DNA from: Blasia pusilla
Taxonomy: Eukaryota
DNA length: 64,000 bases
Reading direction: 5' to 3'
Assembly: GCA_050084515.1 (NCBI GenBank)
Contig: CM114271.1
Coordinates: 29,822,001-29,886,000, forward strand
Positions within the stretch are counted from its first letter, which is position 1, and the number at the start of each line of letters is the position of its first letter. Shown in pieces: positions 17,373 through 60,200 of the stretch. The position numbers and the translations under genes were made by a program. Under the pieces are notes generated by a model. The model was not told where the DNA came from, searched no databases, and worked only from the letters and a program-made list of their open reading frames with translations.

Positions 17373-18003
17373 TGTCACGACTATTAGGATAGATCGATGG
17401 GATCTAGCAGATCGTCTTCACAAGTAGTGGAGGATAGGCCCAGGAGGTCAAGAATGACCTATTGAGGCCCCGAGAAACCTGAGAGAGCAGGTTTCCCCTT
17501 CGGCTCATTTGGAGCCATATAGAGAAAATTACTATTTTGAGTAAGTTTCCATATTGGGAATAGTTGACTTTCCAATTTGGGAAGTGGCCCTTAACCCGCT
17601 ACAGCAAGTCAAGAGCCAAGGAGATGACTTGCGAGCATAGGTTACCGTTGAGAGGGCTTGGGAGGGGAAAGGGGGTATACCTCGATCCAGGAGAGAGAGC
17701 TTGGGAGCTCATTCTCTTTTTGTTGAACATCTTGGCATAAGGCGGCAGAGCTATGGTCCCTTGCCTTGTGAGTGTAACCCAAGCCTCTCATTAGGAGAGT
17801 GGGTTTGGTTTGACATGAGAGAGGGTGCACACCTTTGAGAGCTATGGTGTGAGATGATGTAGAGAGAGATTGGATCTTATTTTATTGGAGATATTTTGGT
17901 ACTTCTTGCCTCTGTGTATGGATGTCATGAATTAGCATGGGATCGCGTGTGTGTGTTCGATGACAACGATGTATGTTGTGTAGCGATGTATATGCGCACG
18001 ATA
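17373..18003 (+). mobile_element. Solo A-B unit of the DNMT-gypsy terminal repeat family
   Basis: TGTCAC...GCACGATA termini with a perfect 4-bp duplication CCCT (17369-17372 / 18004-18007). 17373-17885 is homologous to 46756-46240 (A); 17886-18003 is homologous to 38262-38137 (B). Confidence 0.85.
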
Positions 18004-18727: not shown

Positions 18728-20494
18728 TTTCATGCACATACATATGGTTACACAACACACATCTTTGTCATTGAATACGCACATAAACACACAAGATTCC
18801 ATGCTAACTTATGACATCTAAACATTGAGATGATAGAGTACCAAAATATCTCCAGTAAATCAAGGCAATTTGAACAAGATCTCTTACAAGGTGCACATAA
18901 GAGATCTCTCTCTCTCATGTCAAACCAAATCCACTCTCCTAATGAGAAGCTTGGGTTACTCACAAGGCAAGGAGGACCATAGCTCCATTGCCTCATGCGA
19001 AGAGGTTGAACAAAGAGAGAATGAGTTCTAAAGCTCTCTCTCCTTGGATTTACCTACTTCCCTCTCCCAAGCTCTCTCCATGGTAACCTATGGGCTTAGG
19101 TCATCTCCTTGGATCTTGACCTGCTATAGGGATCAAGGGAAACTTTCCAAAGCGGAAGTCAACTCTACTCAAAACTATAACTTCCTAAAAATATGAAGTT
19201 TCTCTATATAGCTCTAAATGAGCCAAAACGAAGTGGATACATACTCTCTTAGGTTACACGTGGCCTCAAGAGGTCATCCTTGACCTCTTGAGGTTGTTCT
19301 CCACTATCCTTAAAGACGCTCTACTAGATCTCATCGATCTATCCTAAAAGATGTGACAACTGTCGTGCGCATACACATCGCCATACAACATACATTTTTA
19401 TTACCAAATACACAAGAATTGTCGCTGTCTACTTCTCAACTAAGAATTTTACCAAAAGTTTTGAAATTGCTCCTTCCTTCACAAGTTGGCTATGGTAGCC
19501 CATAGAAATGGTCACAGCTTTGTGCTCAAATATCCAAATTGTGCTCAATTTCTTTGAAAACATGGTTAAATTTTTGATCTGCGATGTTGTCAAATTGGTT
19601 TGCTCATTTGACTTTCCATAAAAAATTGAAGACAATTGTCGTGCACGTCATGGCCTACTCTCCAAAATAAAATTTAGCAACGCTTCCACATTGATTTTTT
19701 CCACAAAAAATTGAGAAACTATGCAAACTAACTCCAGCAAGCTACAAGATACTCTTGAGAGCCCTAACATGGAGAACCCCATCCCCATACTCAAATCCTA
19801 TTAAAAATTGGGCAACGCTTCTACGCGCTACTTTCTCGTACAAAAATTTGCATCACAAAGCAGAGAAACGAGCGGCTCTTGCTCCCGTGAGCACTCCCAT
19901 AAGCTATTCAATGGGGAACACGATCCCCAACCTGAAAATGCAAGGAGAAAACAATGAGCACCCGCATTAATTATGGAGTTGTCAATCTTCCATTCTCTGT
20001 TTGTAAATCAAGGTTCTCTCAACAAGATCTCTCACAAGGTGCACACACTATATCTCTCTCTAATGTCAAACCAAACTTACTCTCCTAATGAGAGGCTTGG
20101 GTTACTCATAAGGCAAGGAGAACCATAGCTCTGCCACCTCAAGCAAAGAGATTCAACAACGACCAAATGAGCTCCAAATGTCTCTCTCCTTAGGTATAGC
20201 CCCTTCTTTCTCCCAAGCTCTCTCCACTCTAACCTACACTCGCAAGTCACCCTAGAGGATCAAGGCCCACTTCCCAAAGTGTAAATTTAACTCTACTTAA
20301 AAGGATAACTTACCCAAAATAGTAATTCTCTCTATATAGCTCCAATTAAATGAGACAAAACGAAGAGGAAATCTGCTCTCTCACGTTACCCATGGCCTCA
20401 CCAGGTCATCCTAAACCTCTTGAGCTAGGTTGTCCTCCACTATCCTAGAAGGTGCTCTTCTAGATCTTGTCGATCTATCCTAAAAGACATGACA
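18728..20494 (-). mobile_element. Internally deleted family member with A-leader-B(part)-GT-A-B architecture
   Basis: In element sense: A 20494-20003; leader 19960-19660, homologous to 46190-45895; partial B 19414-19361; GT spacer 19360-19359; A 19358-18855; B 18854-18728. Confidence 0.8.
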
Positions 20495-27889: not shown

Positions 27890-30500
27890 GCAATTTTATG
27901 GCATGGAAGTTTTTTGTTTCAGCATTTTAGAAGGTCTTCCAATGGATTATTATAAGAGGTTTCAATTCTTACATCTTGTAGAGATCGATGCTTGTAGGGT
28001 GTGTTGGGCTTTAAGATGTATGTTCACTAGAGGTTGTTAGGCATATGATGGGGTAGTGAGGGAGGTTAGACCCACAACATCGGCCTAAGGACTAGACGGA
28101 GATGATGAGAGTGATGGCGATAAGGTGGGAAAGACCTTTGGTGGTAGAGCGCCACTTAGTTTCCGTCTATCATGAAATTATTCCTAGAGTTCGGGAGCAA
28201 CTACTAGGGCATGTGGATCAAAAAGTTGAAGAATCTACAAGATTTTTCAGCTAAGATCGGGTAAGAGTCTACAAAAGGCATTCATGCACATGCGACGGCT
28301 GATCATTACCACTCACGGAGTGATTGAGGCACATGCAATTCACTATTGGCATGGGGTTCTAGATCCATGGTCGCACATGAGAGTTCACGATACAATGTTG
28401 CTTCACACGACGAAGCCCACATCGAAGGTGATCTTTGAGTTGTTTGATTGGATTGAGATCAACATGAGTAAGCCTTAGTAAAGAGCATGTTGTGACTACG
28501 AGTCTCCCAAAAATTATTGGAGCGTAGGCAATTCAACATTGGTATGGGGTTTTGGATCTAGACTTGTAGAGGAGAGTTTAGGATGCAATGTTGCTTCATA
28601 CGAGGAAGCCCACATTTAAGGTGGTCTTCGAGTTGTTGGTTGGATTGAGCTCAACATGAGTGAGGAACATATTGTGACCACGAGATTCCCTCAAGATTCA
28701 ACGGATCCACATGTGTCCGAAGCCCCACAAGTGCCCCAACCCGCACCAATGCAACTAGAATAGATTGGTTTATCTAAAGAGCAAAGAAGGTCTTGTGAGA
28801 CTATCAAGGTTGCACACCGACAAAGTCCGTGTCCATGGAAATTTCCATGTGCCCGCGGGCCCGAATAGCTAGGAACGACACGCGAGCCCGAATAGCTAGG
28901 ATCGGCACGCGAGCCTGCCTCCAACCCGCACCCGTTGCGTGGCCCGCAGCCCGGCCTAGTGCGGGCCTCTAGCCTGCCTTGTGGACCTTGGATGCGGGCT
29001 TAAGGCCCGCTAAAATTGATCCGCTAGACCAAGATTTGGTCCGATAGACCACCTTTTGGTCCGGCTGATCACCTTTTGGTCTGCTAGACCAAATTTTTGC
29101 GGGCCCTCGAGCCCATGCCTTCTCTCCTCGAGGTTGTGCTTGCCCGCACCTTGCCCGCCCTAAGCCCGCGCCTACCTGCTCAGAGCCCGTACCTGCCCCC
29201 CTTAAGCTCCAGCCTGCCCGTCTGGAGCCCGCACCTGCCGGCCCTAGCCCGCGCATAACCGCCATAGCCCGCATCTGCACGCCCCAAGCCCGCACCTGCT
29301 TGCCCGGAGCATGGTTGCACAAAAACGGACAATTCCTTCCTTAGGATGGACATGGACGGACAAGTCTGGACATGTCCACGAACATGGATTCCAAGAGGTG
29401 GGACCCACACTTTTAGTTCATGATGGAAGGCAAGGCAGGGATGAGAGGAGCAATAAGGGAGGAGGGAGTGGAGGTGGAGGTGGAGGGAGGAAGAAATGGG
29501 GGAGTATGGAACATAAAGGCAAGTAAGGGGAATTAGACAGAAGGGAAAGGTGGGGCCCATACGTACAAGTCCTTCCATAGGACGGACATGGACATGTCCA
29601 CGAACACGGACTTTGTCCACATACAACCTTGTCCCGGAGCCCACACGTGCCCGTCGGGAGCCCGCCCTAGCCCGCACATGCCTACTTTGAGCCCACGCCT
29701 AGCCTACCCTGAGCCCATCCTGCGGGCACCCAACGGGTGCGGGCTCCGTCAACCCGGGTCTAGGTGGCACGCTCTGAGGTGGGCTCGAGTGCAGGCCCGA
29801 GTGCGGGCCAGACATGCCCGTCCCATAGACGGACTTGTCTATTTGCGTGCAACCTTGGAGACTATGAGGCAATGACCCATGCATATCTATGTTGGATAGC
29901 AAGGACCAAGTTTGGTGTGTTGGATGTGTGTTAGACCCCATAGATAGAGGGATTGCCCACAATATGATGGAGAGCCGGCCGAGGGCGCCTTGATCATAAT
30001 GTTCAAGAGCCACATAAGATAGCCCCACCATAGTCAAAATATGATCAATGTTATTGATATAATCATACTAGGGATATGTGTTTCAAGCTTCACCAAGGGA
30101 TTCGTCTAGAGATAGGACGAGGGCCAAGGAACAGGATATTTTGGGGAATTAATGACGGTGGTGGTAGAGTTCCATTGCTTGTCAGAGGAGATAGACAACA
30201 TGCATCTTATACAACCTTGCTCACTCCCATCGATTACTTGGTGGAGAGGATTGCTACCATGAGGATGACACAACCAGCTATGGACATGAAGCACAAGATA
30301 TTTCTTTAGCTTCAGCTTCCACATCATATCAAGATACGTAGGAGGACTTCTTTAGTATGGTATTTATATGTAGTGCGGCTCAGGAAGAGGTTGCGACTAT
30401 GGTAACTGAGACCTAAGGCACTGCGAGAGTGATCAAAGCTTAGATGAGATGGAGTTGAGATAGACCCAAAGGAGAGAGCTGATAGGTGATAGGTCAGGGT
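27890..30500 (+). mobile_element. Decayed gag of a relative of the DNMT-gypsy family, split by a hAT MITE
   Basis: EGLPMDYY, KLKNLQDF and HMRRLIITTHGVIEAHAIHYWHGVLD match EGAPMDDY, KLRSIHDF and HLRRLINVTQGVIEAQAIQSWYAMID at 43850-44330. Internal duplication at about 28390-28510 / 28585-28695. Confidence 0.7.
28805..29857. mobile_element. Non-autonomous hAT element (MITE)
   Basis: 11-bp TIR CAAGGTTGCAC/GTGCAACCTTG; perfect 8-bp TSD GAGACTAT (28797-28804, 29858-29865); GC-rich cccgcac subrepeats; an internal TIR-like end at ~29313. Confidence 0.9.
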
Positions 30501-34129: not shown

Positions 34130-35372
34130 CCTAATATGACAAAATAAGAATATGTTTGAATTTTTTTACTTAGTCATATAATATTAGATAGGTAGGCAAA
34201 ATGAATTTAGTGGAAGAGGAAAATAATTTTATTAATTAAAAATTAATATAATTAAAATTATAATGGATAATAAGATGTATAATAAGATAGTTTAAAAAAC
34301 TGTAAAAATAAATTATAATTTTTTATCTTAATTCATATTTGATGGGAAGAGAAAATAAAATTTAATGAAGAAGGAATAGATATTTTTAAAATTTTATGTA
34401 ACTGTAAAATTACTTAAGGGAGTGGGATATCATTTAAATTTTAATTGAGGAGTGGAATAACTTAGAAGAGTTGAATGTTATTTCTCTTCTAAGATGTAAG
34501 GAAAAAACTTTTAACTTTGAAATGAAAAATAGAATTATATTTTAAAGTAGTCAGATTAATTCAAATTCATATATTGGGAAAAGAAATTGAATTTGAATGG
34601 AAAAGGGAAATTATTTCATAAATTCAGATTAACTTATAATTTATTTGGTGGATCTTATTTTGGTGGGAAGGGTGTTAGGAGAAGAATAGGTATTTTTCAA
34701 ACGTTTATGGAGGAGTGAAATTATTTAGGAGAGATAGGAATTATTTGAAAATGAAATGTTTTTATTTTCTAAGATTTGAAAATTCGAAATTTTATTATAA
34801 AAGAACAAATTTCTGGAATTTTTAAACAAGAAAAATGTATAATTAAAATTGAAATAATATCTGATTCCCTCTGGTAATTTCATTTGTTCATAAAAGTTCA
34901 AATTATATCTACTCTTCCTTTTCGTTCTTCCCACCAAAGTAACATCCATTAATTAAATTATAAATTCATTTTAATTCATAAAATCATGTCCTCTTTTAAT
35001 TTAAATTCATTTTATTTTCCCAAAATAGAAATCTTGCATAAATATTACTATTTTAAAGTAATTAAAAAATTTTAAAATTTATATATAATTTCCACTTTCT
35101 CAAATCTTAAAAGAGTTATAACATTCTACTCTTCTAAATAATTTCGCTCCTCGATTAAAATTTAAATAATATCCAACTCTCCTAAAGAATTCTATTCTTC
35201 AATTAAATTTAAACAATACTCATTCTTGCCTCAGTTGTCCTTCCACCAAAGTACCACTTATTAATTAAAATATTAGTTAAGAATTATTTTAACTAATAAA
35301 ATCATTTCCTTCTTCCATTTAAATTCATTTCAAGACAAAATTTCAAGCTTATCCTTATTTTGTCTTGTAGTC
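34130..35372. mobile_element. AT-rich foldback element with long (~600 bp) imperfect inverted arms
   Basis: Inverted pairs by eye: gacaaaataagaata / tatccttattttgtc; gaagagttgaatgttat / ataacattctactcttc; ttggtgggaag / cttcccaccaa. Confidence 0.65.
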
Positions 35373-36229: not shown

Positions 36230-38136
36230 ATGGGAAATATAAAAGTAAAGTAGTGGATTGGTATATTAATTAAAATAAGCTAAAATAGAGTTGGTTGGTT
36301 GCTAGGGTAGTTCGGATAGTTTGGAGGATAGTAAGTGGATTTAGGGGGATATTTTAGGAGGAGATAGCGTGTAATCTAATTCTCTCAAAATAGGATGGGC
36401 CAAACCTTCAAAGGAAGCTATATGGCATAAGATAAGATTAGTCGTATCAAGTAAAGATTCTCTTCGTAGATAGGCACTGGTTTACTCGTTATCTAGTCTA
36501 TCACTTTGGAGAGGCATTCATGAACCAGGTCGTGCAATCACCAATCCCAGTCATAGTTCCTATTATCACGTATGGAAAGACTTGGGATTGTACTTTATAT
36601 GTCCTTATTTAGCGATCTCCAGACGTAAATAGGTCTGCTTGAATAGGGTTCAATACTAGTTGTGCTATTTTTCTTACGTACAAACATAAAGTAGTTTATA
36701 GAGACTTCATAGTTGGATATTTTGGGGTTAGATGTTACAATGAAGTGATTGCCTTCATACTACCGTTCGTGATTCTTGTTGTGAGAGAATGGAGAGTGTG
36801 TGTAGTGATTCTATACTATAAAACTTATTATAGAATTCAATCTTGCATCAACGACTACGTAGCTAGAAGGTCTGTCTTTACTCAAAGAAAACTCTTGATA
36901 GGACAAATGGTGCTTCCACTAAGAGATCTTTGAGATGGTCGATTGTGTTTTGCAAATTTTGGTTTTATCAAGATTACTTCTTTAGGTTGTGCTTTATCAA
37001 TGGAAACTGAGGAAGTTGAGGATCTTCTCCAAACTTTGACAACATTATTGAGTCAACAAAGCGGAGTTCACATGGGAGAGCAAAGATAAAAAAAAGGGCT
37101 CTTCCCAGGGTTTGATGGGAGAAATATCACCAAATATGTTCGAGAGTAAGTATGTGAGATGGTAGAACATCGTGTTCTCAAAAGTGAAATGATGTTAAGT
37201 TTTAAATTAGCTGTAATACCAAAGATTCATAATGAGGTGAAGAAATTGGGAGCTCAAAATCCAACCTCATAGGAGGAGTTTGAGCAATTATTGAAAGGAG
37301 AATTCTTTGATGACGATGTGGATCGAGTAACCAAGAGGACTTTCTTAGAATGGATAGAGCAACGTCTAAGAAAGGGAATGACTCCTCACGAATTATTGCG
37401 TAAGTTTAAGAAGCGATTTTTCCAATTATCTTCTTCTATAAGGGAAATTCTTGAATCTTGATTTGAGGAAAACCGAGCTATTTTTTGAGGCAACTATTGA
37501 TAATTTGAAGGAAAAGCTTTTCCTAATGCCAGTTGATGAGACCGAAGAAGCAGGTATAAGTACGGATGGGAAGAAAGTAGAAGAAGTTGTTTCCATCATC
37601 ACGAAGCAGAGCCGTGGTAGAGATAGAGCTGCAATGTTCAAGTTAGAGGTATCAATTTTGACTTCCTTGAATTGCAGAACCCCGTAGTAACAAAGCTCAA
37701 AGATTCTGCCATTGATAAGTTGGTGAAAGGTTTGACAGAGTTGAGAGTAGAGATGGCCGAGCTTAAGCATGATAGGAATCCTAGTGTTTATGCTCTTTTG
37801 ACAAGTAACAACTTTGTGAGGAGATGCATATGATGTGATAGTATTGAGTATTAAGAATGTGGGGAGTTCTCGGAAGCTCTCAGGAATAGAGTTGTAAATT
37901 TCAGAGATGGAAAGATTCATTCAATACATATTAATATGCCGTTGAATACCAATTTTGGTAAAGGAGGAATGAAGAGCTTATTGAGAGGTCAAGTGAGAAT
38001 GGCCACTATGATATTAGATTCTAAGATCTTTGCAGTGAAGATAGAAGCACCTATTATATCTATAGCTAAGATTGAATAATTAAAATTTCCTATAGAAATG
38101 ATGCTACGAGGGATAGAGACTATCCGTCATCTGACT
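36230..38136 (+). mobile_element. Host Ty3/gypsy element: 5' LTR end, PBS and decayed gag (continues after 46756)
   Basis: LTR end ...GGACA (36905), PBS-like TGGTGCTTCCACTAAGAG (36908), gag from ATG 37000 (FDGRNITKY, EFFDDDVDRVTKRTFLEWIE, TNFGKGGMK). The frame IRHLT| resumes as RWDDYVEV at 46761. The left boundary is approximate. Confidence 0.75.
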
Positions 38137-38449
38137 TGTCGTGCGCATACATATCGCTACACAACATACATCATTGTCACCGAACATACACACAAACACA
38201 TACGATCCCATGCTAACTTATGGCATCCAAACAACAAGACAAGAAGTACCAAAATATATCCAATAGCCCCCCTAGCACGTGGTTAGGTTCCTCTAACTCC
38301 AGATAGTCATCTATCCTACCTACCATGACATACATCTCTCCGACGCTAAGAGCAAGAAGATCGGGTGCTCATGTGGCCCCATCATTAGTCGCCTTATTGT
38401 CATCCATGTCACAGACACAAGTTGGAATGTAGAACTACCTAATCTATGT

Positions 38450-38584
38450 ACATCTGGGACACATCCATTGTCCCTGAGGAACCCTAGTGAGAGGTGGCGT
38501 CAAACATGCCATATGCTATCCTTTCAAACATCCATCACAGACTAGCATAATAGCTGCACCGCGCGCAGAACCACACAACATACA
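38450..38584 (-). pseudogene. PHD finger at the integrase C-terminus
   Basis: CMLC...[31 protein letters not shown] is a C4HC3 PHD consensus with one W->stop. Confidence 0.9.
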
Positions 38585-38785
38585 TCGCAAGTCTGCAAGA
38601 ACTACTACTAAGCTCGGATCAACTATACCGTCAATGTTCGAAAGGTGACACGGTGCACAATTACGCACATGGTCCTTCCAAACCATACCATTGCGTCCCT
38701 CCAATAAGAGAACACCTAATGGCAAAACCTCATGCACTCTCAAGATGGTGCGCCCTGCAGTCACATCCAACGTTGTAGGTGCCGT

Positions 38786-39720
38786 CTATTGCAAGTAGAC
38801 ATAGTCTCCTTGATTAAACCTCTGGATAGTAGGTTGATAACCACCTCCCCATATAGTCGCATACCTCAATGTATCCCGATGTTGCGCAATCGCTAAGTTG
38901 TCAAACGACATGGGCATCACTCTCCGAAATAATTTAGCCCTCTGAGAACATGCTCGCATCCATACATCACGGTCATCAAGGTTCAACACCGCACCAACAT
39001 CTCGACGAATGGCCGTAGGTAAATCTGGGTCACGGCCATAAAGCACCAAGTACGGTGAGAAAGACGCTAAGGATGCCTGGCTGCTGAATCTGTATCCCAT
39101 CGCCAACCATGGCAACTAAAGGTCTCAATCTCCTAGGTAACCTCTCTGCAAGCCATACTTACGTAATCCTCTCTTCACCATCTGCACAACCCTCTCTACT
39201 AGTCCATCCACCTTAGGATGATCTCGTGAAGTGGTGCAATGGTCAATTAGTGCCTAATCACACAAGGCTTGAAACTCCCCGCGAAACTATGTTCCTCGTC
39301 TGTCAACACCTCAGCTGGTGCGCCGTAATGACTCAACACTCGATCTAGGAAGGCATACGCTACTCCCTCATTCGCTTTGTCAAGCAATGCAACCAATTCT
39401 ATCCACTTCGAGAAGTGCTCGATCATCACCAACACATAACGACTATAGCGCTCTATCAAAGGCAAAGGTCCTGCAAAATCCAAACTCTATCTATAACCTA
39501 AACCCATGATCAAAAGTTGATGCAACTATGGAGTCAAAGCATTCAATGATGCTCGGACTTGATCACACACCATGCATCTAGCAACAAACTGTTGAACGTC
39601 AGTCTGCATGCCTCGCCACCAATACTGAATCTAGAGCAAGTTGTACGTCCGCTTCATTCCAAAATGACCCAACTCCTCATGGGCATGACGCACCAAACGT
39701 GCTCTCTACGAAGGATGAGG
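38786..39720 (-). pseudogene. Retrotransposon integrase
   Basis: HEELGHFG..CMVC Zn finger, DFAGPL, EHFSKWIELVAL, VLTD, GLVERVVQMVKRGL, FSPYLVLYGRDPDLP. Confidence 0.9.
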
Positions 39721-40049
39721 CACTACACGCACTCTACCATCCTCCCACACTCGCAACACATATGTCCCCTCCCACCGAAACCGTGTGGCTCATTGTAGGA
39801 TCCGATCCCGCTCTCTAGCACCCACTGTGCTCGCGACGCTGCCAATATGCAGATACTCCAAGACCACTCCATCGTCGCAAATATCTCGGCCACTTGTTGT
39901 CTAGTCATCAGCCTCTGGATCTAAGGACTTTCCATCAAACCTCACCATCGAAGTCTCAACAGTCTCCATAGCCAACAAGCCCAAATAGGCTGACACATGC
40001 CATCCTGGCACCAACTCCTCATCACTCTCACCATGCAAACGACCTCCAC

Positions 40050-41385
40050 TCGCATCTCGCTGACTCGGGCATGGGTTACGGCTCAAACCATCTGTATCTT
40101 AGTTGAGCGTCTCAGGTCTATGCACCACCTAGAAGTCATACTCCTGCAACAAAAGACCTCACCACGCAAGCTTCCTTGTAAGCTTGTCGGACTCCATCAA
40201 CCACTTAAGTGGATGATGATTAGTAATGATGGTAAACGGATTGCCAAATAGATAACATGTGAAGTGAACGACAGTCCACACTACAGCCAAGCACTCACCA
40301 TCATACGAGCTTTACTTTGCCTTTGCAGCGTTGTGCGAGCGACTAGCGTAAGCCACCATGAACTCTCTACCATCATCATCATGTTGGGTGGGCACGGCTC
40401 CAAGCCCCAACATGCTCCAATCGGTATGCAAACGGAAAGGATGCCCCTTGATTGGTCTCTTCAATATGGGCGCGGACATCAATCTGTCCTTCAACATTTG
40501 AAATGCTCTCCTCTTCTCATCCCCGTAGTGCAACTCCTGATCCATCTTGGTCAGAATGGTCAGCGACTTTGCAATCGAGCTGAAACCCTCGACGTACCAT
40601 CGATAGAAGTTTGCCAATCCCATAAATGCACCAACTCGACTCACATCTATAGAGCATGGAATGCCTGAAATAGCCTCTACCTTCCTCTGCTGCACACCAA
40701 GGTCCCCTGGGTATATCATATGACCCAAGTACTCAATCTGGTCGTAGAAGAACTTGCACTTGCCTGGATGTAGCTTCAGCCCATATAATTGCAATCTTCA
40801 AAACACCTCCTCTAGATGTCGCTCATGCTCCTCAACCGTGGCGCTAAAGACTACAATGTCATAATAAAACATCTAGCAAAATCCAGACCTGCCAAGATCC
40901 TATCCATGACCCTATGAAACTTAGCTAAGGCGTTCTTTAACCAAAATGGTAAGAACCGCCACTGGTACAAACAATCCTTCCCGTAAGGATCGATGCCCCA
41001 AAATGTCATCTTGTGCTTGATACGTCTTGTGATCCTCCAATTTGATAGGCAGCTGATGGCATCCGACTCGCAAATCCAATGAACTGAAGACCTTTGCATG
41101 CCCAATCGCATCAAAGATCTCCTCAGGTGTGGGCATGGCATACCTATCGGACTTTGTCTACCGATTGATAGGTCGGTAATCTCCACACATCCGCCTATAC
41201 GTCTAGTTGCCATGCACATCCTTCTTGGCAGGCATGAAAGTGGCAGATGCATACTCCCCATGCGACATCTCCACTAGTCCTGCTCCGACCAAGTGCTGGC
41301 TCTTACTCTGAATCAAAGCCCTCGCCATATCACTATACCTGTAGGGTCGTCGGAAGATCGGCATTTCGCTCGACAACTCAATGCG
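40050..41385 (-). pseudogene. Ty3/gypsy reverse transcriptase and RNase H
   Basis: IFRRPYRY, MPTPEEIFDAIGHAKVFSSLDLRVG, FLPFWLKNA, frameshifted (Y)IDDIVVFS at ~40855, KLHPGKC..YLGH, LHTDWSMLGLGAV. Confidence 0.9.
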
Positions 41386-41389
41386 AATC

Positions 41390-41971
41390 CCTCCGCAACA
41401 CCTCGTGTGGTACCAAGTTGGTCCCCAAAAAATGCAGGGGATGTGCTCGTAAACCCACACTCGCCGCATCCAACAAAACTATCGGGCCGATCCATGCGCG
41501 CACCTGATATGCACTCGTCATCACACAGGACCTCGAATCGCCCAAAAGTGGTACATTCTCTAGAATGTATGCTGGAGGACAAGACTAATGCTCCTACAAG
41601 TGTCACAAGATCCACATCATCTCCCAAAACAACCTGGACCGAGAGTCAACTAATCCGCTACCCCGTCCAGTACTCGACTGGCCCTAACATGGCCAACCAG
41701 CAATAACCAAGTCTATGGTCCCAACCCGCTCCAAGTCCTGTGCCCCCAACAATGAAATATCCCTCGGTAGGGAACTCTGGTAACCCTATATGGCGAACGC
41801 ATACAACAAGTCAAGAAAATGGAGGCGTAACTGCGCCACATGGTGAAGTAAAGCGCGCCTTGTAACATCATCAATCTCCACATACAAGTACTACTGCACG
41901 CGCACTCTAGCATGCAAAACAGCAGCTAACCCAATGTTGATCCCTCCAAAGAGATCAAAAACCCAAATACC
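41390..41971 (-). pseudogene. C5-cytosine DNA methyltransferase domain (DNMT3/bacterial-type motif order), C-terminally truncated
   Basis: One unbroken frame with 6 stops: GIWVFDLFGGINIGLAAV (I), YLYVEID (II), DISLL (III), IDLVIAGWPC*GQSSTGRGSGLVDSRSRLFWEM (IV/V), YILENV (VI), LDAASVGLRAHPLHFLGTNL (VIII). Confidence 0.9.
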
Positions 41972-42399
41972 CTCCTCTAGGATGCACCACACAATCGGGT
42001 TGGTGTCCAAAGGGGTCATAGCAGCACTCTTGCCTACCTGGGATTCCTCTAACCTGTCACACTCTGGTGCAAACGTCTCGCTCCACGCGGTTTGCGCATG
42101 CTCAGTGGCTAAGCGTCGAAGCTCCTCAGCCCCAAAGCGGCACCTCTCCTCCACGGAATGATGCGGCTACCATGACACTCCTCTCCATAGAAATATCAGG
42201 AACAGGAGTATCCTCTGTATGGACATGTCCCTAAATCAAATCACTAGGCCAAGTGATGGCACTACTAAATGCTGCTAAGATCGCCATCTCTTCTGGCCGT
42301 CGCTCTATCACTGCACCTGTGAATCGAACAAGTAATGAGCTAAGGTGCCCATCACCTGACTCCCATCCTGGTCTATAGGACGTTGACTCCTCCCAATCA

Positions 42400-42760
42400 T
42401 CCAAGGAAAATCCCATCGGGTATAACATAGCTCCACCAACCAAGACATCGCAAGACTCTGCATCGGTCCCTATCGCCTTGGCTTGCACCACGGACTCATC
42501 TATAGGATGTCCTAGGCGAATTCTCACCACGACCTCCTGTCGGGTGATATATTGTGTGATACTTGCTCCATCCAAGGATGTCTGCATCTAGAATGGACAA
42601 TGCTCCACATCGGCTCTCGTCAAGCCCAATCCTTTGAATGAAACTTTCCCAACATCAGGGGTTGCGCTCCTAAATCCAACAAGACGTGATGCGGACTAAA
42701 AGCTCTACCTCCATGACTCACCAACTGGAAGACCTCTCCCCGGTTATCTAGCAACACAAC
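42400..42760 (-). pseudogene. Aspartic protease
   Basis: HVLLDLGAQPLMLG (DSG-like active site) and downstream DVLVGG motif. Confidence 0.7.
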
Positions 42761-43399: not shown

Positions 43400-44481
43400 A
43401 GCGGCAATCTGCTCCTCTAGTTGCTATATCTGAGCAGCCAACCCAACCTCATGCCCCACATCTCCCTCAACGCGTCCAGGTGTGTGACCATATCTCTCAC
43501 AATAGTCACACAGATAACCTCCCGGTGCAACATTATCTCCTCCTCCATACTGAGGCACATGTCCAAGATACTAACAAGTGCAATCACGTTGATGATGGGC
43601 TCCACCACATGACCAACAAGTAATCGTAGGCGGTTGCTACTAAGCTGCATATGGCACGGCCTCTCGGTATCCTCTCTGAGCTCGTGGTGCCACAGTCGAC
43701 CTATCTCGGAGTCCACATTGCTGCATAGGTGGTGTAGACAATCGTGACTACTCTCGCCCAAAACCCATGGTGGCTACGCTTTGCTCGGCCATGTTGCGCT
43801 TAATGTTCTCGGCGGTCCAAAAAACATCTCTCAACATAGGGGAGGTGTTCATAAGAAGCACCCCTCCCGCACCCGTGTCCACAGGATTCGGTCAATCATC
43901 GCATACCATGACTGGATAGCCTGAGCCTCTATCACCCCTTGAGTGACGTTGATCAACCGACGCAAGTGAGTGCAAGCCTCGCGCAAACTCTCACCCGGGC
44001 GCCTCAAGAAGTCATGGATGCTCCGCAACTTCTCCGTCCGTACCCCTTGGTAGCTCGCCCTCAACTCAACGAAGAACTTAACCACGGGGTTGAACCTGGG
44101 AGGAACCCGACTAGATGGTGCAACTACTCTAGTGCGAGTGACCCCTCCTAAAACATCACTAGTGGAAGAGGAAGTAGCCTCTCCTAACTCCTCCTCCTCA
44201 TCTGGGAATGGCTCCATCCATGACACATAGTGTGGGTTATAGTAGAGTTGCCATGCCTCAATCTCCTAGGCATATCTGTGGGAGAACTCATGGTAATCGT
44301 CCATGGGTGCCCCCTCTAAATTCTCGAACATACCTTTCCATGCTGTGAACGGGTTGAACTCTCTAGAGTTCCTAGCCCGTTGTGAGTCACACCAATCCCT
44401 AAACTCTGCAATGAAGTCGTGTAACTCTATAGTGCCTACAACACCCGAAAACCTACACGGTCCTCTACCCCGGTCGTCCAT
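43400..44481 (-). pseudogene. Gag
   Basis: CRFSGVVGTIELHDFIAEFRDWCD, KLRSIHDFLRRPGESLREACTHLRRL (major-homology-region-like), decayed Zn knuckle near 43550. Confidence 0.7.
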
Positions 44482-47400
44482 CTCCTACGCCCAACTGGTA
44501 GGACCACTTAATGTGTATGGTGGATCACTAACACACTCCTTTACACGCTCCCCCTCTTCTGAAGACGACACATAAGGAGATCGAGGTGGTCTCTCACGTG
44601 GAGACCCTCGAAACCCTCCAGAGCTACTCTCAGGTCCACTACCTCGCCTCTCAAAATCCTGAAAGCATGCCGTGATGGCCCTCATGCCCCTTGTGCCCCT
44701 CTCACACAATCACTCCTAATCTCACAAGTAATCCCTCAATCACTCAAACTAAACATGCGGCACTCAATCTACACTCTCTCATTGAGACGTGTGATGTACA
44801 GAAAAGTAATTGATCTATCGTCTCATCCACAAACCATCCTCAACTCAGGACATCCCACACAGTTCTATGTCCCCTAAACCCATACATCATCGATGCTCTC
44901 AGCATCAGCACAAAACCCAATATCCCAAATAACTTCCCAATAGCCGAAAATCCCTCACACGTGCAGGGTAGAAGACCAGAATGGGTAACCTCACAATAAT
45001 GTCGATGTCGCTCCTCGGAAATTGCAAATCTCGGCCCCAACTCGGTCATGAAGACAACTCCTCCAATCAGCAAGTCGTACTCCTCTCGTACTGACGCTGC
45101 TCAAACCTCCTCGATATGCAGCACTAACGGCACAGAACGGCTACAAACGGCACGACACTCGGGAATGGGGTGTGGCACTTGGCGGAATACCCTCCTCAAT
45201 CAGAAATTCACACGCTCAGCTCCTCAGTGAAGGAGTGGCTCCGTGATAGAGATGGTGCGGTGCGGCCATGAGCGGCACGGCGCGGCAATCGGCGGCGCGT
45301 TGCGGCTACAGGCGTCACGGCACGGGACTCGATTGTCATCGAGCGGCTACTAATCACAACATAGCAGCATGAAAGGAAAACCCAAACACCATAACCCAAT
45401 GTCATCTACCATCACTAGTTGATAACGATACTGTGATGATGGTGGCGGCCAAAACAAAGTACGTGGTGGCGGCGCAAATCAGAGAATCAACGATCGTCTT
45501 GGAAGACCCTCCACTATGTAATGGCGGCAATGGCAACCAAGGGTTGACAAGGGCCGAACGCAGCTCTGAGCAACGCTAGGCGGTGGCGGCAGCCGACGGT
45601 GGATGGTGGTCCGTTTACGGTCAATGGTGACAGTTGACCGTTGATGATGACTCTGACGGCAATAGCCGCCGCCGGCGCGGGGGCTGGTTTAGGGTTTGAA
45701 AATTTTAACCCTAAAAATCGCATAGAAATGGAAGTTTTGAAAGATTGACCATAACTTTTTGCTTGCAAATCCAAATTGCGTAGTATCTTTAATACAGCGT
45801 GCACAGCTTTACGATTTACAACAATGTCAAAAAATATTTTGAATCGGACATTCTAGTAAAAATTGATGGGGACTGTTGTACAGCCCAACGTCTCTTTCTC
45901 CTACACAAAATTTGGCAGCGCTTCCGCTCTAATTTCTCCCAACAAAAATGTAAAACCTATGAGAACACAAATCAACAAGCTACATGGTGCTCCCGAGAGC
46001 ACCGGCATGGAGCAATCTGCCCCCATACTCAATTCCTATCAAAAATTGGGCAGCGCTTCCGCATGCCACTCTTCCGTACAAAAAATCAGCAAAGCAAAAC
46101 AACAAATTCGCATGGCTCTTGCTCCGGTGAGCACTCCCATGAGCCATGAAGGGGGGAACATGGTCCCCGAACCTGCACCAAACATCGAGCAACCATAGAG
46201 CTCCCCCATGAAGCTCTCTCACTCAATCATTCTTTCTTTGTAAAATAAGATTCAATCTCTCTCACAATACCATAGTTATCACATGTATGCACTCTCACAT
46301 GTCTCGCTCAATGTCAAACCAAACCCACTCTCCTAATGAGAGGCTTGGATTACATTCATAAGGCAAGGGATCATAGCTCTGCCACCTCGTGCCAAGAAGT
46401 TCAACAAAGAGAGAATGAGCTCTTAAGCTCTCTCTCCCTGAGGTATATCCCTCCTCTCTCCCAAACTCTCTCCTTGGTAACATATGCTCCCAAGTCACCT
46501 CCTTGGCTCTTGACCTGATGTAGGAGGTCAAGGGTCACTTACCAAAAATATATAGTCGACCATATACTCAAAATGGTACTAACCTAAATTAGTAAGTTCT
46601 TCAATATGGCTCCAAATGACCCGAAACGAAGGGGAAACCTGCACTCTCAGATTTCCCGTGGCCTCAACATGTCATTCTCGACCTCTTGAGCCTATCCTCC
46701 ACTACTTGCGAAGGCGCTCTACTAGATCTCACCGATCTATCCTAAAAGATGTGACTTACTAGATGGGATGATTATGTGGAAGTGGGTACGTTAAAGCATA
46801 TTAACATAAGAGAAACATTTCAGTTGGCAAGATGCAAGTGTGGAAGAGAAGAGGCGATGCGATAATAATGGTGGTGATCTTTGAGGAAGCTGCAAGAAGA
46901 GCGAGAATTACAAGAAGGAAAGGTAACTAGAGGTGTAAGCATCAAGAGAAGAAAGGCCTTCTACGTGTGAATCTATGATGGATTCTCACGTTTGAGGAGG
47001 ACTTTGGACAAAATCTCTCCATCAAGGAAGTGTAAGGAACCTTTGATATTGACTACATCTAGTTGGAGGAGTCCAAATCCACATCTTTGGACGTAGGTTC
47101 CATTTCTTTTCAGAGAGATTATCGTGGAATCTTCTCGACCATCAACCTCATATAGTCGAGCAATGGTAACTAGAGAGGCATCCAAAGCAACACTGCTTGC
47201 TCACAATAATAGAGCTCCACCTCCGTGTTGAGGCTCACACTGGTTAGGCTTTGAGACTTCTTGAGAGCTGATAAATGTACTTCTCTTCTCTACTTTGGAG
47301 AAGGGAGAGGCGGAAGTGAATCGAAAGCTCTGTTCTGACAGTGGAGAGAGTGGAAATGCTAGAATCGTAGCACCTACCATCGGAGGAGGGTGTGGTAGCG

Positions 47401-50400: not shown

Positions 50401-51540
50401 ACGATGAACATAGGGAGAGTCAGCGGAACCTGTCGTTTCACACATTGGAGTTTCAAGAACTCAGATGAATTCTACTCGGTATTAAGCCGAAAATAGTGGG
50501 GCTAGAACGTGGGTTTCCTCTAATTACTAGGCAAGTAACCTTCCATCCATGACCAAGCGAAAGATCTAAAATTAATTTTTTTAACTTGTATCTTACTTTA
50601 CCTTCCCCGCACTCTTCTACAACCGAATTGATTTCACACATTGTTTTGTTTCGTTTGGACTTATGTTCCAGGAGTTGAAGTATTCGAACAAAGGACTAAA
50701 CAAATTCGATCGACGCCATAAAATCTACGAAATTGACTACAGATAAGAGTGATAGTTATTGTTTAGGGACTTTGTCGACCGAATGGTGCGATGCTATGGG
50801 TTTTAACATATTATTCGAAAAGCGAAAGCCCGTTACCACAACTCAAACGATCATGAACTGCATTTTGTAAAGCATGGCTGATTGCGGAGAGGGTTCATAT
50901 TCCCAATGTGCAACTGCGTCCAATGTCCGAAGCTTCATGGATAGGTCCAAATTGAATTCTTAGACGATTTCTCCCATTCTAAACTAAGATATTTTGATCA
51001 CGGAAAAAAAACCTGCTTTGCAGAGTTTGGGTCGCGTCTCCTTAAATACTTCTCACCTTGTACTTTATGATAGAAATTTGAAGTTTGACATCACGTTTTA
51101 ATAAACGAATAGTCGGAGTCATCACGTTTTAATAGACCATCACGTTTTTATAGACGAATAGTCGGAGTCATATCATAATTTTAGTGAAATTGTTGTAGAA
51201 AGAATATCCATCCTATTAAGAGATCTTATTACCACATTCATCATAAGTTCCAACGTGGTACTTCTGTAGATAAGGCCGTGAAAGAAGACCTTGTGATCCT
51301 TTTAATTAAACCCTATTTATTTAAGAAGCATCATAGAATCCTTTGAATAACCCTAATACTCATCCTGGTGACTAATAACCAGAAAGTAATTTGCAATTTC
51401 TAATCAAAGGGGGGGCGTGTGGAACTGCATCCTATCAAAATAGGGTACAATGAAATGAAATTCCGCAAATCGTATCCATCGTGAGATGTCCAGTGATAGG
51501 TCTATCGGAAGAAGTTTGATGTAGGTCGCTTGATACAGAT

Positions 51541-53295
51541 ATGTACTGCCATTGTCCATGTCTGATATATTGCTGGTGCAGTGGCTATCGCCAGCGGCAT
51601 TTTGAACAAATCTGGAATGCTCGAGCGATAAGTGACAACGCTTTTGACTCGAGAAATGGAGATAAAGGCAAGGAGTCGCGGATGGACGAGAATAATCAGG
51701 ATGAAGAGAGAGTTGCTTTTAAGAACTCTATTGAAGGAGGATGGGCCATTGAAACAAAGCGGCCCGAAACCGAAAACGACCGAGATCATGCAACCCTAAA
51801 TGAGCTACACCAATCTCTTCAGGAATGGCCTTCATTCAAGCAAATTCTGTCAGAAATCAACAAGCAGAATAAAATTGGCGGGCCCATAGCAGCAATGAAT
51901 TTGATGTGGTTTGCGAGGTTCATTATCTCCACTTTCTTTTTGGGGCACATGGGTTCTCTACAGCTTGCGGGGGGCACTATGGCCTTGACTTACGCCAATG
52001 TCACCGGATTTTCCATCCTCATGGGGTTATCGGGTGGAATGGAGCCAGTTTGCAGCCAGGCGTATGGAGCTAAGCGTTACATGCTCCTGGGGCTGGCACT
52101 CCAACGTGCCATTCTCATTCTCCTGGTCACATGTTTCCCCATCACAATTGCCTGGTTGAACGTCGAGAGAGTGCTGATTTATTTCGATCAAGATGCGGCC
52201 ATTGCATCTATAGCCAAGGACTACTTGCACTACTTGTTGCCAGACCTCGTAGCTACGGCAGTTTTAGCTCCGCTCAGAATCTACCTCCGATCGCAGTGCA
52301 TAACCAAACCCATGATGCTGTGTTCCGCTATTGCCATGTCGTTGCATATTCCCCTGAATCTTCTCCTTGTCTTCGGCTTGAATTTGGGTGCCTCGGGTAC
52401 TGCTCTCGCCTCATGTTTGACCGACTTCAATCTCATCTTCATGCTGCTCTTGTACATCCGCCTTACGGGGATCCACCGAAGCTCTTGGCCAGGCTGGTCC
52501 AAGTACAGCATGCGGGATTGGGTCCCATTCATGCGCGTGGCTGGCCCCACTTGCTTAATGACGTGCTTGGAGTGGTGGTGCTACGAAACCATGACGATTC
52601 TCACAGGATTTTTGCCCGACGCCCATAAAGCCATAGCCACCATGGCCATCGTCCTAAATGGAGACACCATGTGCTACGCCCTTCAAGTCGCCCTGGGCTC
52701 ATGCGCGTCTACCCGTGTCGGCAATGAGCTCGGAGCGAATTCCCCTTTGGCCGCCTATCATGCTTCGTTGGCTGCCCTTAGCCTTAGCATAGCACTCGCC
52801 TGTTTAGGTGCAGCCGGACTCATTGGCGCTCGCCAAATTTGGGGCAAGCTCTTCACATCCGACCAGCAAATCCTGCTCGGGGTAGCAAAACTTTTGCCCA
52901 TCATGGGACTCTGCGAATTTGGGAACTTCCCTCAGACAGTCTGTTGCGGTGTTTTACGTGGGAGTGCTCGTCCTTCCACTGGTGCTTATGCCAATCTCGG
53001 AGCTTTCTATCTTGTGGGTATACCTCTTGGTGTCTACTTAGCCTTCTCGGTGAAACTGGGCCTTCTTGGTCTCTGGCTTGGGCTCCTGGCCGCTGTGCTC
53101 ACTTGCGCAGTTTTGACGATTACCGCTGTTCTTAGAACAGATTGGATTCAACAAGCCCTTCGTGCCCAGGAGTTGACTTCGTCTGGGACTGCTGTTGATC
53201 CATATGAGTATTCTCCTCCTCGCTCACCTCTCGACCTGCCCTACTGCACTCCCGCGGACAATTCTCATCAGATCCTTGCCCATCAATCACCATGA
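51541..53295 (+). CDS. MATE/DETOXIFICATION efflux transporter, intronless DTX56-like clade
   Basis: Intact 584-aa ORF with MATE motifs FLGHMGSLQLAGG, ANVTGFSIL, CSQAYGAK, CLEWWCYE, STRVGNELGAN, GVLRGSARP, NLGAFYLVGIP. AMNLMWFA and AIVLNGD resemble DTX56 by recall. An alternative in-frame start is ATG 51682. Confidence 0.95.
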   Translation: MYCHCPCLIYCWCSGYRQRHFEQIWNARAISDNAFDSRNGDKGKESRMDENNQDEERVAFKNSIEGGWAIETKRPETENDRDHATLNELHQSLQEWPSFKQILSEINKQNKIGGPIAAMNLMWFARFIISTFFLGHMGSLQLAGGTMALTYANVTGFSILMGLSGGMEPVCSQAYGAKRYMLLGLALQRAILILLVTCFPITIAWLNVERVLIYFDQDAAIASIAKDYLHYLLPDLVATAVLAPLRIYLRSQCITKPMMLCSAIAMSLHIPLNLLLVFGLNLGASGTALASCLTDFNLIFMLLLYIRLTGIHRSSWPGWSKYSMRDWVPFMRVAGPTCLMTCLEWWCYETMTILTGFLPDAHKAIATMAIVLNGDTMCYALQVALGSCASTRVGNELGANSPLAAYHASLAALSLSIALACLGAAGLIGARQIWGKLFTSDQQILLGVAKLLPIMGLCEFGNFPQTVCCGVLRGSARPSTGAYANLGAFYLVGIPLGVYLAFSVKLGLLGLWLGLLAAVLTCAVLTITAVLRTDWIQQALRAQELTSSGTAVDPYEYSPPRSPLDLPYCTPADNSHQILAHQSP

Positions 53296-57204: not shown

Positions 57205-60200
57205 CATTACTTATGATAGATATCTTAGATCCAAAATAGAATCCACAAAAAAATGGGAGGAACACTCTACTCGTGCATATACATGCTCTACAACACCTCG
57301 TGTGGCACCAAGTTGGTTCACCATAGACGCAAGCAATGTGCTTATAAATCTACATCCGCTGCATCCAAAAACACTATTGGGCCTATCCATGTACGCACCT
57401 GGTGTGCACTTGTCACCACTTGTGATGAGACTCGTGACCTAGAATCGCCCAAGATCAGTACATTCTCAAGAATGTACGCTAGAGACGTATACCAATGTTC
57501 CAGCAAGTGCCACAAGATTCTCATCATCTCCCAAAATAACCTAGATAGAGTGTCAACTAGACCACGTTCTTGTACAGCACTTGACTAGACCTAACATGGC
57601 CAACCTACAACAAGGATCCCCATCCGATCCAAATCCTGCACCCCCAATAAGGAAATGTTCCTCAGTAAGAAACTATGGTGATTCTGTAAGGCTGACGCAA
57701 ATAAAAAGTCAAGAAAATGAAGGCGAAACTACCCCATATGCTAATGTGTCAACCCTCATAACCAAACGAGCGCCAAGCGGAACACCTAGGATGGTTTTCG
57801 CGTTGGGATGACGCTTGGAAGAGACACAAGAGATGAGACACAAACAAGGTTGAGCATTTCATGAATTTATGATTGCAACTATGGAACGTGGACCAAACGC
57901 AAACCAAGACTTAAGAGGAGTCAGGTCTAGGAAGGCTGGTTGCTAAAGAGGTAAGAACTAGATTTGGAACGTGGCTAGCGTTTGGAATTTTGACTTTATT
58001 CTGGACCATAACTTTTAGTCTCAAGATACATTTGGAACAAATAAGGTGGCGTTATAAATTTTATGAAAATTTAGTTTCAACCCACTAAAAATCTTTGCCA
58101 ATGCACAAGCACAAGCTGAGATATTGGCCAAAACTAAATATAGGGGAAGTTGGGTTGAGGGCCAAAAAGAGGGGTCGGAGTGTCTCTTCCTGAAAGGTAG
58201 GGGAAGGGCGGAGATCCCTAGAAGTAGTAATAAGGGGGAAGGTATCCAAGAGTGCTTGGGACTCGAACCCCACTTTGGAGTGTCGTGGGGCGACTCAAGG
58301 ACACATAATGAATCACAAGTTTTGGCGTTGGGATTCGAAGCCCAAACCAAGTCCAAAAGAGTGGATTTTGGAGGTCCCTATTGGATTCCAACTTGCAACT
58401 CATTTATTTGGGTCTCGATTTGGGGGCTCATGCAAGGTCCATTGGACAATTAGGACCGCTAGGCGAGCAAATATTGTTTTGGGTTTCTAGACTAACCAGA
58501 GAGTCTATCCAAAGTCTCGGAAGACTAGAGTGTGTTGGAAAGCTAGGAACAAGGGAAGGTTGAGCTTAATGAGGTGCCAAGTTGAGACTCAGTGGGTTGG
58601 AAGGCCAATTGATCCAAACCGGACTAACGTGATTGTGTTTGGGTGTAGATCGATGATGAGAGTGTGTCCTAATGAACATACGCTTCCACAACACTAAAGA
58701 TTGACATTCAAGAGAAATAGGTGCACATTGGCTAGATTGAGATATGCCTCATAATTTAATTTTTCTCCACATAAAAATATGCTACATGCACACTCGTGGT
58801 AGCCAAACAATAGCCAACCCAATTTCAATCCCTCCAAAGAGATCCCACACTTGAATACCCTCATCTAGAATGCGCCATGCAATTGGTGTCATGTGCTAGG
58901 GTGACATTGTAGCACTTCTGGTTGCCTGAGGTTTCTCTGACATATCACGCTCTTGTGCAAATGTCTCACACCATACCATATGCATATGGGCTAAACGTCA
59001 AAGCTCTTCTCTCCATCCCCACAAATCCACTTCTCCTCCATGGAATAATTCTCCTACATAACACTCCTCTCCATAGGGATGTCAATCATGAGTGTGTCCT
59101 ATGCATGGTCATATACTTAATCAAATCCTTAGGCCAAGTGATGGCGCTACTAAATGCTACTAGAGTCACCATCTCTCTTGGCCGTTGTTCGATCGCTCCA
59201 CTCGTGAATCAAACGAGTAGTGAGCTAAGTCATCCATCACATGACTATCGTCTTAGTCTGTATGATACTAACTCCTCCAAATAATCCACAGAAACCCCCA
59301 TCGGATACAACATTGCTCCACCAACGAGACGTCACAGGACTTGATATCGATCACTATTATCTTGGCTCACACCACACACTCATTTGACATAAATCTTGGT
59401 CAAATCCTCACCACGACCTCATGTTGGGTAATAAACTCTATCGTACTTGCTCCACCTAAGGATGTTTGTATCCTAAATGGGAAATGCTCCACATCAACCC
59501 TTGTCAAGCCCAATCCCGTAAACCCCACCTTCCCCAACATTAGGGATAACGTTGCAATCCTAAATCCAAAAAGACACAATGAGGACTAAACACTCTACCT
59601 CTTGGACTCAACAACTAGAAGATCTCTCCCCGATTATCCAACAAGACATTGTCAACACCAAGAGAAACCATGGCTCGCTATGTCACGAGTGTAGCAGGCA
59701 TCTTTGCCATCCTTTGTCACCTGCCATGAATCTGAGGTGGACGGCTTGAGCATAGGCTTCAAGGACAAGACCACCATCTCCTCTCCAACTATCTCTCAAG
59801 GTGAGGCAGTAAGATCATCTACATACTCGCATAGCGTAGCAGCCAACCAAAAAACCTCGATTTGAGTACCTCCAAATATCGCAACATCAGAAGTTGAAAA
59901 CCATGGGGCGCGGTACTTAACAATGGCCGCCCCCAACAACGTACTCAACACAAGATTCACCTTACCATGAGGAGTCATCCCACTTGGTTCTCCCCTTGTC
60001 TGTCATGCTTGTACACCACCAACATCCATCCTCCTAGAACTTTGATCACGACCCATCGATGGGGTCCTCATCGCCTTAAAAAAAGTAAATGACTAGGATA
60101 GTCTGATTTGTTTCTTAGCTTCTCCCTACTATGGATCCAACTCTACAATTGATCCATATATAACAATAGTGTTTGCCTCCATGTGTGCAACCCCACACTT

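Follow-up and report, generated by a model that had tools for sequence, protein, structure and literature searches.

The window (the whole 64,000-nucleotide stretch of Blasia pusilla DNA that was analysed) contains a dead Ty3/Gypsy-Dnmt3 retrotransposon, one copy of a high-copy element with split terminal repeats, A-coding-B-A-B. The Pol protein of this element ends in a PHD finger, and the same element carries a cytosine methyltransferase (DNMT). The pairing of the two domains is a family trait. A sequence-only reading of the window had placed a chromatin reader and a DNA methyltransferase in one retrotransposon and had likened them to the ADD finger and catalytic domain of animal DNMT3. The pairing is borne out by the rest of the family, and the likeness is not.

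The element in the window

Gag, protease, the C5 methyltransferase, reverse transcriptase (RT) and RNase H all lie upstream of the finger (Table 1), and the order protease, RT, RNase H, integrase is that of Gypsy elements. Many stops and frameshifts interrupt the copy, and only A-coding-B is kept of the family layout.

Table 1. Parts of the retrotransposon copy in the window.
Feature	Position	Strand	Basis or remark
C4HC3 PHD finger, last Pol domain	38450..38584	-	in-frame stop 38518-38516; family stop codon 38446-38444
5' terminal repeat A, ~515 bp	46241..46756	-	sister copies have it again 3' of the PHD, within B-A-B; starts TG there
gag, decayed; CCHC zinc knuckle ~43580-43618	43400..44466	-	tblastn with Marchantia protein P0030, 50% identity
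Aspartic protease region	42130..42750	-	tblastn with P0030; equivalent region of L099 matches Asp_protease_2
Dnmt3-like C5 cytosine methyltransferase, motifs I, IV, VI and VIII only	41390..41970	-	motif positions 41950, 41698, 41560, 41449
RT and RNase H, decayed	40150..41388	-	RT_RNaseH_2 E 1e-16; RVT_1 weak; tblastn with P0005, 54%
DDE integrase: H2C2 finger, core, SH3-like C-terminal barrel, conserved CxPCH	38600..39750	-	rve E 5e-6; tblastn with P0005, 63%
Repeat B, ~127 bp, ends CA; final A-B unit absent in window copy	38137..38263	-	sister-copy comparison
Probable 4-bp target-site duplication, 3' copy	38133..38136	-	partner 46757-46760; 3/4 bases match

Translation of the finger gives all eight C4HC3 ligands, in frame behind the C-terminal part of the integrase. 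The finger had been described as complete. Its ligands and its place stand, but codon 23 is a TGA stop, so the window finger is not complete as a product. The half that follows the stop is by itself recognized by the PHD profile PF00628 (26.3 bits, cut-off 24; E 7.5e-6), and four stop-free sister copies reach 49-50 bits. Ligands and fold are those of the PHD class, although the window copy is broken by its stop. A natural open frame is found in sister copy L051. The frame of the sister copies ends two codons past the PHD; a chromodomain was sought 3' of the PHD in these copies and none was found, nor does any tail follow the finger in the family.

The finger occupies the place of the chromovirus chromodomain, as had been proposed. 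A chromovirus-type Ty3 element in the same window (60227-63566, + strand; RNase H, integrase, SH3_Tf2-1, Chromo) has its SH3 and Chromo domains at the equivalent place (62994-63563). In a structure model, the end of the integrase forms a five-strand barrel, which is followed by the PHD. A CxPCH motif before the PHD (window ~38650-38680, - strand) has a Cys and a His that are invariant in 24 homologues; it is a possible extra zinc site.

The DNMT of the window copy retains only motifs I-VIII. Relative to five sister copies, a deletion of ~835 bp at ~41390 has removed the target-recognition part, motifs IX and X, and a stop codon that is discussed below. The claim that a DNMT belongs to the same element is sustained by the sister copies, in which the domain matches PF00145 (E 5e-13) and has DNMT3A as its best PDB match (E 1.2e-10); the window itself preserves a fragment. 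Matches to DNMT3A/B in the PDB (E 1e-10) are far stronger than those to bacterial enzymes (2e-4) or DRM (4e-4). The motifs are in order and mostly kept, in a frame shared with RT apart from one stop. By these features the enzyme appears to be a Dnmt3-related, unrearranged and intronless DNMT within the polyprotein frame.

In the family, the layout is A (515 bp)-coding-B (127 bp)-A-B, starting with TG and ending with CA. Among ten two-ended sister copies, an exact 4-bp target duplication is found in seven, three of four bases match in one, and two have none. Duplications of 4 bp demonstrate integration by the DDE integrase, and they show no sequence preference. The same split repeats are present in the metagenome relatives L090 and L106. 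The B-A junction of sister copies (for example L052 and L055) reads CA, two bases (mostly purine-pyrimidine), TG. It resembles an unprocessed end-to-end junction, and may account for the way in which an element with split repeats feeds a DDE integrase. The window also has solo A-B units from the family, the equivalents of solo LTRs, at 17374-18001 (+), 18730-19357 (-) and 20050-20493 (-).

Co-occurrence in the genome and beyond

Searches of the 390 Mb B. pusilla genome gave 5,578 first-look candidates with DNA of the PHD region and 5,680 with DNA of the DNMT region (40 scored for each), and 5,347 with the PF00145 profile. These counts are not copy numbers, yet they show that there are thousands of copies.

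In 10-kb stretches around the best 20 DNMT matches, the PHD is whole in 14, partial in 1 and absent in 5, and the last five have lost most or all of the integrase as well. Around the best 20 PHD matches, a whole DNMT in matching orientation is found at 10, a partial one at 2 and one on the opposite strand only at 2; the remaining 6 have none, and the protease is missing from these six too. An independent sample was formed by every third of the first 60 chromosomal PF00145 matches (n = 20, one overlapping an earlier locus). Its members are 76-88% identical to the window. Ten of the 20 have the PHD; only 11 extend to the C-terminal part of the integrase, and these 11 include all 10. Co-occurrence across family members, proposed earlier as a check, holds as a rule. 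Every sampled copy with a whole integrase has the finger. This family-wide co-occurrence rules out that a host PHD or DNMT became fused to the window copy by chance nesting.

All 60 loci examined at length in the genome are decayed, and the longest stop-free stretch is below 470 codons (40 loci checked). Only 12 of the 43 sister copies that cover the finger have all ligands without a stop or indel; together with paired repeats that are 86-96% alike, this points to an old burst. Two small contigs with the best PF00145 matches (C20 and C23 of G000) align from the start of the profile, unlike the element copies, and may be bacterial contigs.

The family is transcribed, as observed in RNA reads, which do not imply functional mRNA. 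Three RNA runs from one study, with the same species label, have 5,542, 6,235 and 5,695 reads of 10-12 million on one copy (L050, 85% likeness). The reads cover all 30 bins of this copy, and more than 90% are on one strand, which is the sense strand if the usual stranded protocol was used. Most derive from other copies, and nearly half continue into unlike sequence.

Homologues are found in Marchantia polymorpha, Calypogeia fissa, Riccia sorocarpa and Sphagnum, and among algae in a Coleochaete scutata transcript, in Closterium and in the chlorophyte Hariotina reticulata. Of 101 matches to a DNMT profile, 58 reach the integrase end, and the PHD is present in 54 of these. Nearly all other DNMT-bearing elements have the PHD, and four do not. 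One (P0162) ends just short of the PHD position; the other three (P0194, P0197 and P0213) have lost the PHD and kept the DNMT, and are nested among PHD-bearing elements in the tree. In the reverse search, started from integrase-PHD, the stretch from RNase H to integrase is spanned by 32 of the best 150 matches, and 27 of the 32 have the DNMT.

Relatives in metagenomes were taken as the best 80 of 487 loci, 27 of them with at least 3.6 kb upstream. The DNMT is present in 25 of these 27 and the PHD in 22 of the 25; of the three exceptions, two end at a contig edge and one has no PHD match. Several of these loci are repeat assemblies of one element. No relative was found in viral contigs, and a first metagenome scan gave no matches. 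Two proteins labelled bacterial in public databases (P0102 and P0184) are members of the eukaryotic element clade, and are probably mis-binned.

Two layouts can be distinguished: protease-DNMT-RT-RNase H-integrase-PHD, and a chlorophyte-type RT-RNase H-DNMT-integrase-PHD that often has an adenine-methylase-like tail (Atlas lead 0.90; N6_Mtase on 39% of members). In L160:3348-9893, P0136, P0149, P0157, P0169 and others, RT, RNase H, DNMT3, integrase and PHD are joined by a small Tudor-like barrel (recognized by eye) and an adenine-methyltransferase-like tail. The DNMT and RT trees both split the two layouts (support 87 and 100, FastTree). A motif filter had removed 35 of the 67 intended rows from the first RT tree; the second has 38 rows (FastTree, no bootstrap). 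Because both trees separate the layouts, the pairing would be old and the DNMT would have changed place within the element. Horizontal transfer is a possible alternative for the tree pattern. Judged from these sequences, the PHD-DNMT pairing is old and widespread, in chlorophytes, charophytes, Sphagnum and liverworts.

Both domains are under purifying selection in open-frame relatives: in one pair of metagenome relatives from outside the B. pusilla genome (L097 and L099), dN/dS is 0.05 for the PHD, 0.12 for the DNMT and 0.04 for RT. The observed/expected ratio of CpG is 0.66 in the copies and 0.57-0.70 in relatives; the values do not differ and are uninformative on self-methylation.

The stop codon, the finger and the proposed mechanism

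Gag-protease-DNMT and RT-RNase H-integrase-PHD share one frame and are parted by a conserved stop, TAG-CAR-YYA. The stop is present at the DNMT/RT boundary in 27 of 32 copies (24 TAG, 3 TAA), and CAR-YYA follows the boundary codon in 31 of the 32. Among 1,498 coding codons, no other internal position is stopped in more than 36% of copies. In the independent sample, 15 of 20 copies have the stop where it is expected. The alternative of a frameshift at the DNMT/RT boundary is ruled out by the shared frame and single stop.

The stop was also sought in the 27 metagenome loci, where motif X could be located in 10. It is followed by CAR-YY in nine of these ten, with the exact CAR-YYA in L097, L098 and L099 and one base off in six. 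The linkers of L097, L098 and L099 differ, yet the stop context is kept. In L099, the stop codon alone parts an open frame of 1,369 aa with protease and DNMT from one of 1,047 aa with RT, RNase H, integrase and PHD. Of 149 homologous proteins, 41 are protease-DNMT products that end before RT. The stop is not universal, being absent from P0056 (a single 2,811-aa frame) and L144. UAG followed by CAR-YYA is the readthrough signal of TMV, about 10% efficient in vivo according to the accessible part of PMC2754532, and readthrough would accordingly be expected at the DNMT/RT stop.

In animals, DNMT3 couples an ADD finger to an adjacent catalytic domain in one chain. The retrotransposon shares with it DNMT3-type catalysis and a zinc finger of the unmodified-H3 class. 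Its PHD, however, is canonical, C-terminal and not coupled in translation to the catalytic domain. The leaky stop falls between writer and reader, which are some 1,300 codons from each other, on either side of RT, RNase H and integrase. With an ordinary PHD, a stop in 27 of 32 copies and four of 58 homologues without a PHD, the analogy with ADD-DNMT3 drawn from the window is not supported.

The best PDB relatives of the finger are CHD4, PHF12, KDM5 PHD1, MOZ/DPF, BHC80, AIRE, BAZ2 and UHRF1, and no ADD domain is among its 60 best PDB matches. In an AlphaFold model of the integrase end and PHD (pLDDT 81), the finger superposes on the DPF, UHRF1 and BAZ2 fingers at ~1 Å. The closest solved fingers and folds are binders of unmodified H3. 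Homology to Tudor-PHD proteins, suggested by whole-model matches to PHF1 and UHRF1, was rejected: TM is ~0.3 with an rmsd of 11-15 Å, and the matches reflect the SH3-like integrase barrel beside the PHD.

Contact residues can be assigned by alignment to KDM5B PHD1, in which L325, D328, P347, G349 and W351 bind A1 and R2 of H3 (PMC4225485). Their equivalents are kept in 39, 43, 36, 42 and 40 of 43 copies, respectively, so the A1 pocket and R2 aspartate of fingers for unmodified H3 (KDM5 PHD1, BAZ2 and CHD4 type) are present. In KDM5B, D308 contacts unmethylated K4 (PMC4225485) and E321 forms an acidic wall (PMC5415848). Both equivalents are non-acidic in the B. pusilla family, and the acidic wall is found in 3 of 14 streptophyte-type fingers versus 41 of 55 chlorophyte-type fingers. 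Because the K4 acid and the wall are absent, binding may be weak or blind to the state of K4.

The Trp of the H3K4me3 cage is presumed to lie two residues before the zinc His. This position holds Gly in 42 of 43 copies; among 69 homologous fingers, 1 has Trp there. The aromatic cage, which serves in H3K4me3 reading (PMC4225485, PMC5415848), thus lacks the Trp of the ING/BPTF/TAF3 class, and the replacement argues that the finger is not an H3K4me3 reader. The finger is probably a binder of the free H3 N-terminus, with uncertain selectivity in the B. pusilla family. The earlier reading is supported in so far as the end of the integrase has what resembles a binder of the H3 tail; for want of the cage, and with the K4-contacting acids missing as well, it is uncertain that the finger reads the methylation state of H3K4. 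A complex prediction of a stop-free PHD with the H3 tail of the same genome scored 0.31 (mark 0.34) and speaks neither for nor against binding; PHD finger and H3 tail are themselves a textbook pair.

The explanation leaned towards, with slightly better than even confidence, is that the DNMT, synthesized together with Gag and packed, methylates cDNA in cis, while the PHD tethers the integrase to nucleosomes away from H3K4me3. Most ribosomes would halt after the DNMT and a minority would read through, so that the DNMT would be made at a Gag-like level and packed into the particle, and the PHD would be made at the level of the integrase. The protease would then separate the DNMT from integrase-PHD. 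Inside the particle, the DNMT would methylate the element's own cDNA, and new copies would therefore arrive pre-methylated, as self-marking or self-restraint. The PHD would stay on the integrase and tether the integration complex to nucleosomes through A1 and R2 of the free H3 N-terminus, doing the job of the chromoviral chromodomain. Because it has no cage for trimethyl-lysine, H3K4me3 promoters would not attract it, and insertions would fall in gene-poor chromatin. Reader and writer would be two complementary steps of one life cycle, not one allosterically coupled enzyme. Methylation of cDNA in cis has already been proposed for Gypsy-Dnmt3 elements, and a Klebsormidium Gypsy DNMT expressed in yeast gave no methylation, a result that need not mean inactivity, as described in the available text of PMC5890265.

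The near-universal co-retention of PHD and DNMT could indicate a tighter coupling than this explanation proposes. A wider account can be offered tentatively, as a doubtful but real possibility. The elements would form an undescribed ancient Ty3 clade of the green lineage, older than the chlorophyte-streptophyte split. Their integration complex, with its own H3-tail reader and de novo DNMT3 (and in chlorophyte members also Tudor-like and adenine-methylase-like domains), would write silent chromatin at each insertion. Streptophyte members would have moved the DNMT to the Gag side behind the leaky stop, raising its dose, and the element would have shaped the methylome of bryophytes with thousands of copies.

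A coupled reader and writer, split over the polyprotein in the manner of ADD-DNMT3 and suggested by the sequence-only reading, is unlikely. Here the DNMT would travel with the integration complex, the PHD would pick nucleosomes with unmethylated H3K4, and the DNMT would methylate the site and its flanks. Such coupling would give the co-retention that is seen: 54 of 58 homologues have both domains, as do 27 of 32 proteins that are anchored on integrase-PHD and span RNase H to integrase. The deep split is also the same in the DNMT and RT trees. The chlorophyte-type order, with both domains on one side of RT, the DNMT directly before the integrase and acid-rich fingers, fits it better than the B. 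pusilla layout does. Against it stand the leaky stop and the ~1,300 codons between DNMT and PHD in the B. pusilla family, a finger that is not an ADD and is without K4 acids, and the existence of DNMT elements without a PHD.

It is more doubtful still that the PHD serves as a nucleosome tether blind to histone marks, or as a structural or protein-binding appendage of the integrase, with no targeting by histone state in the family. The lack of both cage Trp and K4 acids would agree with this, as would target duplications without sequence preference and the invariant Cys-His before the PHD, a hint of a larger structural unit. Selection nevertheless keeps the A1 pocket and R2 aspartate, and a PHD-bearing Gypsy of Chlamydomonas inserts between genes 2.6 times more often than by chance, although selection may contribute there (available text of PMC9940879).

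Least probable, and hardly likely, is a DNMT made in excess with Gag that modifies genomic copies or the host genome in trans (as copy-number restraint or added de novo methylation) independently of integration: the stop would make the DNMT the abundant product, ~5,300 first-look DNMT candidates are in the genome and family reads occur in the three RNA runs, mostly on one strand, but all 60 loci examined at length are decayed and selection should be weaker on a trans-acting than on a cis-acting enzyme of a selfish element.

Relation to known elements

The closest described system is KnitGypsy-Dnmt3 of Klebsormidium nitens (de Mendoza et al. 2018, PMC5890265). In the available parts of that source, it resembles the B. 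pusilla element in having Gypsy domains and an unrearranged Dnmt3-like domain in the polyprotein, a DIRS-like A-coding-B-A-B layout and purifying selection on the DNMT. A PHD is unmentioned in its text and readable supplements; Fig. 4c and the supplementary figures may show one. KnitGypsy-Dnmt3 is described there with few copies in the K. nitens lineage, compared with thousands in B. pusilla, and its review file has DNMT and RT in the same ORF, in contrast to the leaky stop of the B. pusilla family. Assignment to Gypsy-Dnmt3 is based on features, as no Klebsormidium-labelled protein was among the homologues returned.

PHD fingers in retrotransposons, including Gypsy elements, are already known (available parts of PMC9940879 and PMC6673714). 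Gypsy-7a_cRei of Chlamydomonas shares a PHD in Gypsy Gag-Pol and an LTR with sub-parts, and its PHD has been proposed to limit harmful insertions; the domains listed in the accessible text of PMC9940879 do not include a DNMT, and the element is compared with the B. pusilla clade by description only. REM1 is cited as another PHD-bearing Gypsy of Chlamydomonas.

EpiLTRs likewise combine a chromatin reader and a cytosine methyltransferase in one LTR retrotransposon. Their reader is a chromodomain, accompanied by DAM, and their DNMT groups as sister to DNMT4 and is set apart from Gypsy-DNMT3 by the authors; EpiLTRs occur in Cymbomonas and Euglena and are absent from streptophytes, with no PHD mentioned in the part of the preprint available (bioRxiv 10.64898/2026.05.21.726589). 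The B. pusilla element has no chromodomain and its DNMT is DNMT3-like, which places it outside the EpiLTRs. The chlorophyte-type relatives are their PHD/DNMT3 counterpart. Chromoviruses also have a reader at the integrase C-terminus, but it is a chromodomain after the SH3-like domain, and none is present in the B. pusilla family. The RT is ~33% identical to that of B. pusilla chromoviruses and is on a long separate branch, outside their clade, in a tree with three chromoviruses of the same genome and no outgroup.

Each half of the combination, retrotransposon DNMT3 and retrotransposon PHD, has been published. The combination and its breadth were not found in the literature searched: in a body of work that left out most subscription papers and Repbase, there was no DNMT3 with PHD in one Ty3 element, no bryophyte expansion and no leaky stop. 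Companion domains of DNMT3 are treated in the available part of PMC12344493, and the accessible REXdb text is without a PHD (related literature: 10.1101/363937, PMC6317226, 10.1101/2021.11.30.470311).

The earlier report of retrotransposon-borne DNMT3 in plant relatives concerned one alga. The present finding pairs DNMT3 with a PHD-tipped integrase in liverworts, peat moss, charophytes and chlorophytes. Since the family is present in the model Marchantia polymorpha, the methylomes and histone maps already available allow self-methylation and the choice of silent chromatin to be tested. The conserved leaky stop offers a concrete prediction on enzyme dose. Dozens of bryophyte gene models named "DNA methyltransferase" or "PHD" are pieces of the Gypsy-Dnmt3 element.

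Other features of the window include a second, more divergent remnant of the DNMT family (57279-60431, - strand; 71-78%), with pieces of gag, protease and DNMT and no RT or PHD seen, and a gag fragment related to the family gag (27918-28635, + strand; 32%). An intronless ORF of 591 aa for a MATE transporter is found at 51520-53295 (+ strand), and an AT-rich long inverted repeat at 34366-35233 is MITE- or foldback-like.
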